From: Escherichia coli | Lineage (GTDB): Bacteria > Pseudomonadota > Gammaproteobacteria > Enterobacterales > Enterobacteriaceae | DNA length: 64,000 nucleotides | Strand: one strand, 5' to 3' | Assembly: GCF_036507355.1 (NCBI RefSeq) | Contig: NZ_AP027877.1 | Part shown: positions 19,890 through 20,188 of the stretch, piece by piece | How the letters are laid out: each line of letters begins with the position of its first letter | Numbering within the stretch: position 1 is the stretch's first letter | The notes under the pieces: model-generated | Database searches by the model: none | What the model saw: only the letters and a program-made list of their open reading frames with translations | What the model was told of the DNA's origin: nothing | Translations under genes and position numbers: made by a program

Positions 19890-19965
19890 TGGAGCGGGAA
19901 ACGAGACTCGAACTCGCGACCCCGACCTTGGCAAGGTCGTGCTCTACCAACTGAGCTATTCCCGC
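19890..19965 (-). tRNA. glyV: tRNA-Gly (GCC), copy 1
   Basis: Reverse complement reads GCGGGAATAGCTCAGTTGGTAGAGCACGACCTTGCCAAGGTCGGGGTCGCGAGTTCGAGTCTCGTTTCCCGCTCCA, 76 nt with encoded CCA. Confidence 0.95.
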
Positions 19966-20000
19966 TTGGGTGGTCTGTGCCTTACAGCACTTTCAAATTT

Positions 20001-20076
20001 TGGAGCGGGAAACGAGACTCGAACTCGCGACCCCGACCTTGGCAAGGTCGTGCTCTACCAACTGAGCTATTCCCGC
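20001..20076 (-). tRNA. glyX: tRNA-Gly (GCC), copy 2
   Basis: Identical 76-nt sequence; 35-nt spacer from copy 1. Confidence 0.95.
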
Positions 20077-20112
20077 TTGGGTGGTCTGTGCTTTACAGCA
20101 CTTTTCAAATTT

Positions 20113-20188
20113 TGGAGCGGGAAACGAGACTCGAACTCGCGACCCCGACCTTGGCAAGGTCGTGCTCTACCAACTGAGCTATTCCCGC
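20113..20188 (-). tRNA. glyY: tRNA-Gly (GCC), copy 3
   Basis: Identical 76-nt sequence; 36-nt spacer from copy 2. Confidence 0.95.

Follow-up and report, generated by a model that had tools for sequence, protein, structure and literature searches.

The three-gene tRNA-Gly(GCC) array of an Escherichia coli genome: the glyV-glyX-glyY operon, its neighbour datA and its antisense reading frames

In Escherichia coli K-12 MG1655, the RefSeq annotation places three tRNA-Gly genes, glyV, glyX and glyY (b4163-b4165), between orn and yjeV/queG. Replacement of the whole operon in K-12 required plasmid-supplied tRNA-Gly "to avoid cell lethality" (PMC10950094). In vitro work on the glyV-glyX-glyY precursor places an RNase E cut 1 nt downstream of glyY, and this cleavage depends on the single-stranded glyX-glyY spacer and on the upstream glyX tRNA (PMC4191395, PMC9841416). 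Because both the spacer and the glyX tRNA are needed for cleavage, the tandem arrangement contributes to maturation. The tandem identical gly genes have been noted as an example of within-genome duplication (PMC4539685), and duplication of this operon, there called glyU-glyX-glyY, was described under ciprofloxacin stress (PMC8811037).

Downstream of glyV-X-Y in K-12 lies datA, a locus that, in an IHF-dependent manner, promotes the hydrolysis of DnaA-ATP (Kasho et al. 2024, PMC10950094). The order of its elements is box 1, box 2, IBS and box 3 (Frimodt-Møller et al. 2015, PMC4585315; also PMC10950094). In K-12, the glyV-X-Y terminator is leaky and overlaps DnaA box 1, read-through from PglyV-X-Y displaces IHF from datA, and this read-through is attenuated by IHF binding, by DnaA box 2 as well as by the terminator (PMC10950094). 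As published, the operon is an essential supplier of tRNA-Gly(GCC) and, in E. coli, also the source of the read-through that times the binding of IHF at datA.

We analyzed an array of three tRNA-Gly genes in a stretch of E. coli DNA of 64,000 nucleotides, referred to herein as the window. This array is almost certainly the glyV-glyX-glyY operon of E. coli, transcribed from one sigma-70 promoter as a tricistronic precursor and leaking into datA. For this explanation, the present analysis provides the genes, their identity and position, the near-identity to K-12, the motifs of the promoter, terminator and datA, the copy-number variants and the concerted evolution of the repeat, while co-transcription, RNase E cleavage and the control of datA by read-through are taken from published experiments in K-12. 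Nothing in the data contradicts it. Both the array and its interpretation are already known, and the window represents one more strain with the canonical K-12-type allele.

The array and its flanks

ARAGORN and Rfam agree on three tRNA-Gly(GCC) genes (Table 1). Each copy matches Rfam RF00005 over the full length of the model (1-71), with a score of 69.1 bits (gathering score 29, E = 3.5e-14); ARAGORN places the anticodon gcc at position 34 in all three; and the three genes are 100% identical (76 of 76 columns). CCA is encoded at the 3' end of each gene, and the ends of the tRNA read GCGGGAA...UUCCCGC-U-CCA. The identity elements of bacterial GlyRS (U73, G1:C72, C2:G71, G3:C70, C35 and C36) are all present. 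As three perfect 76-nt repeats each score as a tRNA, the array cannot be due to chance.

The two spacers follow a common pattern, AAAUUUGAAA(A), a 5-bp stem-loop and then ACCACCCAA, and are one substitution and one single-base indel apart. The trailer 3' of glyY is unrelated to either of them. Tandem Repeats Finder described the region from 19888 to 20188 as 2.7 copies of a repeat with a period of 111 (98% matches, score 588). The initial annotation had reported three identical 76-nt tRNA-Gly(GCC) copies with near-identical 35-36 nt spacers in a tandem repeat of ~300 bp. Its coordinates turned out to be exact, and the spacers measure 35 and 36 nt. While the coordinates and the anticodon stand, it had left out the strand (minus) and the identity of the array as glyV-X-Y, and had also passed over the read-through of the operon into the adjoining datA. 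A match to YrlA (Rfam RF02553) at 19913-20051 on the minus strand covers parts of two tRNA genes; it is below threshold (40.3 bits against 69), does not occur in the gathering-threshold scan, and was rejected as an artefact of the tRNA-like module of YrlA.

Table 1. Features of the array and its flanks (positions are those of the window)
Feature	Position	Strand	Remarks
Inferred glyV-X-Y promoter	20238-20294	minus	read by eye, checked against K-12
A8T6 tract	20281-20294	minus	upstream of -35
-35 element, TTGCAG	20268-20273	minus	16-nt spacer to -10
-10 element, TATAAT	20246-20251	minus	
Discriminator, GCGCC	20241-20245	minus	GC-rich
5' leader of tricistronic precursor	20189-20237	minus	~50 nt; upstream end inferred from promoter position
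glyV, promoter-proximal tRNA-Gly(GCC)	20113-20188	minus	76 nt; ARAGORN, Rfam; K-12 b4163
glyV-glyX spacer	20077-20112	minus	36 nt; AU-rich AAAUUUGAAAA, 5-bp stem-loop 20088-20101, then ACCACCCAA
glyX, second tRNA-Gly(GCC)	20001-20076	minus	76 nt; ARAGORN, Rfam; K-12 b4164
glyX-glyY spacer	19966-20000	minus	35 nt; layout as glyV-glyX spacer; stem-loop 19977-19990
glyY, third tRNA-Gly(GCC)	19890-19965	minus	76 nt; ARAGORN, Rfam; K-12 b4165
glyV-X-Y terminator/attenuator	19830-19867	minus	hairpin 19840-19867, then UUUUUGUUGU at 19830-19839
Second terminator-like hairpin, ACAGCC-UCA-GGCUGU	19784-19798	minus	terminator scan and fold; overlaps DnaA box 2
datA core	19622-19871		four DnaA boxes and IHF site; pattern scans
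DnaA box 1	19863-19871		ATATCCACA
DnaA box 2	19796-19804		TTATCCACA
IHF site	19727-19739		TAACCTATTGATA; perfect match
DnaA box beyond IHF site	19634-19642		TTATTCACA
DnaA box beyond IHF site	19622-19630		TCATCCACA
orn (oligoribonuclease), upstream neighbour	20399-20944	minus	same strand as tRNAs; RefSeq annotation
queG (epoxyqueuosine reductase), convergent downstream neighbour	18481-19620	plus	RefSeq annotation
yjeV, 17 codons	19603-19656	minus	MRFYFYSQAVDESGVTR; same strand as tRNAs; WP_010723271.1, K-12 b4670
Spurious ORF, 135 aa	19770-20177	plus	antisense to array; WSGKRDSNSRPRPWQGRALPTELFPLGWSV twice
Spurious ORF, 111 aa	19864-20199	plus	antisense to array; GAGNETRTRDPDLGKVVLYQLSYSRLGGLC twice
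Third spurious ORF, 71 aa	20081-20296	plus	antisense across glyV and promoter

The operon of K-12 (NC_000913.3, 4392360-4392658) has the same genes, order, neighbours and spacer lengths (36 and 35 nt) and the same promoter, terminator and datA motifs; the orientation of the window is reversed relative to MG1655. The two sequences are identical at 796 of 801 aligned positions. The five differences comprise a T in the window for a C in K-12 in the hairpin loop of the glyV-glyX spacer, three substitutions in the A/T tract upstream of -35, and one substitution just 3' of the orn stop codon, whereas the tRNAs, core promoter, terminator and datA have none. A 1,301-nt query around the array found matches in 5,425 of 5,426 complete E. 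coli genomes; the closest of these is 99.7% identical to the query, and its RefSeq annotation lists orn, three tRNA-Gly genes, a 17-codon hypothetical protein and queG. In one complete E. coli chromosome record (NZ_CP135244.1), the query matches a single tRNA-Gly gene only, with no match to the orn or queG flank. The small gene yjeV is part of datA, where it spans the two DnaA boxes beyond the IHF site, and it also overlaps the 3' end of queG, which is encoded on the other strand.

A strict consensus sigma-70 scan from 19500 to 20500 returned no sites; it missed the promoter of glyV-X-Y because the -35 element fits the consensus at only three of six positions. The discriminator is GC-rich (Table 1), and GC-rich discriminators are typical of stable-RNA promoters. 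From its -35 element onward, the candidate promoter is identical to that of K-12, where a promoter in the corresponding interval has been shown experimentally (PMC10950094). We infer the exact start site from these motifs and expect it near 20238-20240. The terminator hairpin is found 22 nt after glyY and folds with -14.3 kcal/mol (z = -2.2). A scan of the spacers for promoter or terminator motifs found none, the promoter motif being upstream of glyV.

On this basis, one sigma-70 promoter would yield a tricistronic glyV-X-Y precursor from the minus strand. RNase E would cut this precursor immediately 3' of each CCA, where the segments are AU-rich and single-stranded, with the neighbouring tRNA aiding recognition, and RNase P and 3' exonucleases would then complete the ends of the tRNAs. 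Together with glyW, located elsewhere in the genome, the array would provide the tRNA that reads GGC and GGU. The RNase E results are carried over to the window strain because of its near-identity to K-12; expression, processing and the link to datA in this strain are likewise expected from that near-identity.

Elsewhere in the window, ARAGORN found only one further tRNA gene, a tRNA-Phe(GAA) at 50148-50223 on the plus strand, between dsbD/dicD and cadC. This is the pheU position. An integrase gene adjoins it in related genomes, and about one-third of the genomes lose collinearity over a 4-kb stretch at this gene, as expected for a known site of island integration. A guanidine-II (mini-ykkC) riboswitch occurs at 35136-35182 on the minus strand (50.4 bits against a gathering score of 32).

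Variation of the array among genomes

When a single copy was used as the query, the tRNA of the array was found in 5,425 of 5,426 complete E. coli genomes, with a median of 4 matches per genome (range 2-9, mean 3.99, total 21,628). Exactly four tRNA-Gly(GCC) genes are present in 59 of 60 genomes sampled evenly down the ranking, and five in the remaining one; the four copies are the three of the array plus glyW. One E. coli genome has nine copies of the array tRNA. Separately, eight copies among the matches are plasmid-borne.

Variants of the array itself were sought with synthetic two- and four-copy queries, and the counts are lower bounds taken from the matches listed. Two-copy arrays are present in at least 14 of the 5,426 complete genomes, among them strain C9 (checked); at least two genomes, O157:H7 17B6-2 (checked) and 1297KP, have four copies. 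A variant count based on 80% coverage was dropped, as it was contaminated by three-copy genomes joined from several pieces. Assembly errors may account for some of the two- and four-copy arrays seen in public genomes. Nonetheless, related strains share the same variant state (STEC379 with STEC384, and EC359 with CY34), which argues against random assembly error. The copy number of the array changes, but rarely. The initial annotation had regarded the array as a substrate for copy-number change by recombination and had proposed comparing strains as a check; such a comparison did bring out variants, even though they are rare and all but one of the sampled genomes have the canonical four genes. 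Because the three genes are identical, their number can change by unequal recombination. The repeats of 111 and 112 nt would occasionally recombine into two- or four-copy arrays, and the spacers would be kept alike.

A more common variant is an insert of 121 nt immediately 5' of glyX, found in ~30% of E. coli genomes. There are 1,628 E. coli genomes with no collinear match to the window at the array, and for 1,606 records the top match to the insert has an identity of 95% or more. As ~30% of genomes lose collinearity here, a genomic island at the edge of the array was suspected; this was ruled out, the cause being the 121-nt spacer insert. The insert was located at 6190-6346 of locus L002 and at 5880-6036 of locus L003. 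It is absent from K-12 and from the window, in which the corresponding site falls between 20076 and 20077. A blastn search of the window with the insert found no copy, and the spacers of the window are 35 and 36 nt long, so that no ERIC/IRU element is recognized in them.

The predicted fold of the insert is a long, imperfect hairpin (-51 kcal/mol, z = -4.9), and its family is dispersed, with a median of 9 places per genome. It matches the ERIC primer cores at 16 of 19 and 18 of 20 positions. These matches and the dispersed copies suggest that the insert is ERIC-like. A search of the literature for an ERIC element in glyV-X-Y found nothing relevant. Among the matches listed, arrays of Salmonella diarizonae, Citrobacter, Pluralibacter, Kluyvera, Silvania, Buttiauxella, Superficieibacter and Enterobacter ludwigii also contain this element, which is in the other spacer in some of them.

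Beyond E. coli, a scan for the pattern of two adjacent copies found at least 120 loci, mostly in Enterobacterales and Aeromonas, with a few in Pseudomonas. Among the matches listed, 63 Enterobacterales loci have orn upstream and a convergent queG downstream of the array, and 54 of these 63 syntenic loci carry three copies. Within a genome, the spacers are far more similar to each other, with a median identity of 0.83, than to their positional counterparts in other genomes (0.51), and this holds in 55 of 58 genomes among the matches listed. The greater similarity within genomes points to concerted evolution of the tRNA-plus-spacer unit, by gene conversion or unequal crossing-over.

The stem-loop of the spacer is a further conserved element. 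In the window, the glyV-glyX spacer, with its stem-loop at 20088-20101, folds with -7.2 kcal/mol (z = -2.8). Among 32 distinct spacers of Enterobacteriaceae, 94.3% of the stem cells are paired, as compared with 70.8% in shuffled controls, and none of 500 shuffles reached the observed value; slid controls gave 30-45%. Compensatory changes are found in four of the five pairs. In the same 32 spacers, the stem-loop is flanked by invariant AAAUUUGA and CACCCAA.

Antisense reading frames and rival readings

The plus strand opposite the array is open over long distances (Table 1). The initial annotation had dismissed the ORFs at 19770-20177 and 19864-20199 as mere translations through the array, and our results bear this out. 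Both are antisense to the tRNA genes, and each contains a block repeated with a period of 37 residues, because the first period of the DNA repeat (111 nt) equals 37 codons and copies 1 and 2 are in the same frame. With 112 nt, the second period moves the reading frame by one nucleotide, and for this reason the block of ORF 19770-20177 reappears in the tail of ORF 19864-20199 (WSGKRDSNSRPRPWQGRALPTELFP). A Pfam search of the plus-strand ORFs, including that at 20081-20296, gave nothing above the cut-off (best E-value 0.024, 15 bits against a cut-off of 26), and RefSeq has no annotation at the positions of ORFs 19770-20177 and 19864-20199 in either K-12 or the closest genome. In an exact look-up in a collection of 15 billion proteins, three of the four array ORFs, including these two, were unmatched. 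ORF 20081-20296 is found in NCBI as an E. coli "hypothetical protein" or "protein of unknown function" (CRL87669.1, VZZ90986.1). The plus-strand ORFs are meaningless products of reading the repeat in antisense. The locus is a textbook case for annotation, in which a tandem tRNA array gives rise to long antisense ORFs with internal repeats; since one ORF of this array sits in NCBI as a hypothetical protein, masking of tRNA genes before ORF calling is worthwhile.

There is hardly any chance that one or both of these ORFs are real coding genes that have an internal repeat and overlap the tRNAs fortuitously. They do remain open for 111-135 codons, and for the similar ORF next to them (20081-20296) a database entry as a hypothetical protein exists. 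However, they lack a Pfam domain above the cut-off, a RefSeq annotation and an exact counterpart in the protein collection; the DNA repeat fully explains the peptide repeat; a 1-nt difference in spacer length changes the frame; and across genera the changes in spacer length are not multiples of three. A different proposal concerns the repeats themselves, which might be duplicated att sites left behind by integrative elements that target tRNA-Gly, and not a working operon. Each of the three copies is full length and identical to the others, the array is flanked by neither an integrase nor foreign DNA, and, among the matches listed, Enterobacterales share a conserved three-copy array between orn and queG. 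tRNA genes are common sites of integration, and the loss of collinearity inside the array in ~30% of E. coli genomes might seem to fit such an origin, but that break is due to the 121-nt ERIC-like spacer insert and not to an island. We thus consider leftover att sites extremely improbable.

It may also be asked whether all three genes are at work, or whether a single functional copy is accompanied by silent, recently arisen duplicates on their way to being lost. That each copy is expressed cannot be concluded from identity alone, and strains with two copies are viable. Yet three copies are the mode, being present in 54 of the 63 syntenic loci from many genera among the matches listed, and all copies appear to belong to one transcription unit, with no terminator motif inside it. 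Moreover, the tricistronic precursor is an RNase E substrate in experiments (PMC4191395, PMC9841416), and replacing the whole operon made plasmid-borne tRNA-Gly necessary (PMC10950094). A single functional copy is therefore very unlikely, and an operon of three working genes is the reading that we retain.

datA and comparison with known systems

Between glyY and queG, an interval of 270 nt, DnaA boxes were scanned for with at most one mismatch. The datA core holds four boxes in 250 nt, as compared with ~0.3 predicted from the window-wide number of 86 per 64 kb, and the 64-kb window contains only one perfect IHF match besides that of datA. A cluster of DnaA boxes in which boxes 2 and 3 enclose a single IHF site, located downstream of glyV-X-Y, is the arrangement of datA and is present here. 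For the two boxes beyond the IHF site, the numbering would follow the published order. Box 1 overlaps the 5' arm of the terminator hairpin, in agreement with the mapping in K-12 (PMC10950094). The sequence of datA is without differences from K-12, and its activity in the window strain is presumed by analogy. Transcripts that pass the leaky terminator would run across both DnaA box 1 and box 2 as well as the IHF site, and would help to keep IHF off datA before replication initiation.

At least three DnaA boxes within 320 nt downstream of the array are found in 51 of the 63 syntenic loci among the matches listed, against a background of 0.43. Among these matches, the cluster is absent in Aeromonas and mostly absent in the loci of Providencia, Morganella and Photorhabdus. 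The wide occurrence of the DnaA-box cluster in Enterobacterales suggests that datA is older than E. coli.

The architecture of the array may conceivably be shaped by more than tRNA supply, in that it would set the leakage into datA, although we consider this rather unlikely. The features that might take part, again with a low probability, are the number of copies, which is 2-4 in E. coli, the stem-loops that covary in the spacers and the ERIC-like hairpin of 121 nt. If this were true, natural variants at the locus would modulate the timing of replication initiation. Such a role concerns the locus across the population; the window itself carries the canonical K-12-type allele.

The arrays of Aeromonas resemble that of E. 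coli in that the tRNA is identical over its first 73 nt, the genes are arranged in tandem with spacers of 22-38 nt, and orn is upstream. They differ in having more copies downstream of orn (5-7), in lacking a DnaA-box cluster downstream, and in that queG is mostly not adjacent. With other tRNA operons of E. coli used for comparison, glyV-X-Y shares a probable single promoter, short AU-rich spacers, an encoded CCA, a Rho-independent terminator located 10-25 nt beyond the final tRNA, and direct entry of RNase E helped by adjacent tRNAs. Unlike those operons, it is homogeneous, consisting of three identical genes, and its terminator doubles as part of a replication-control locus.
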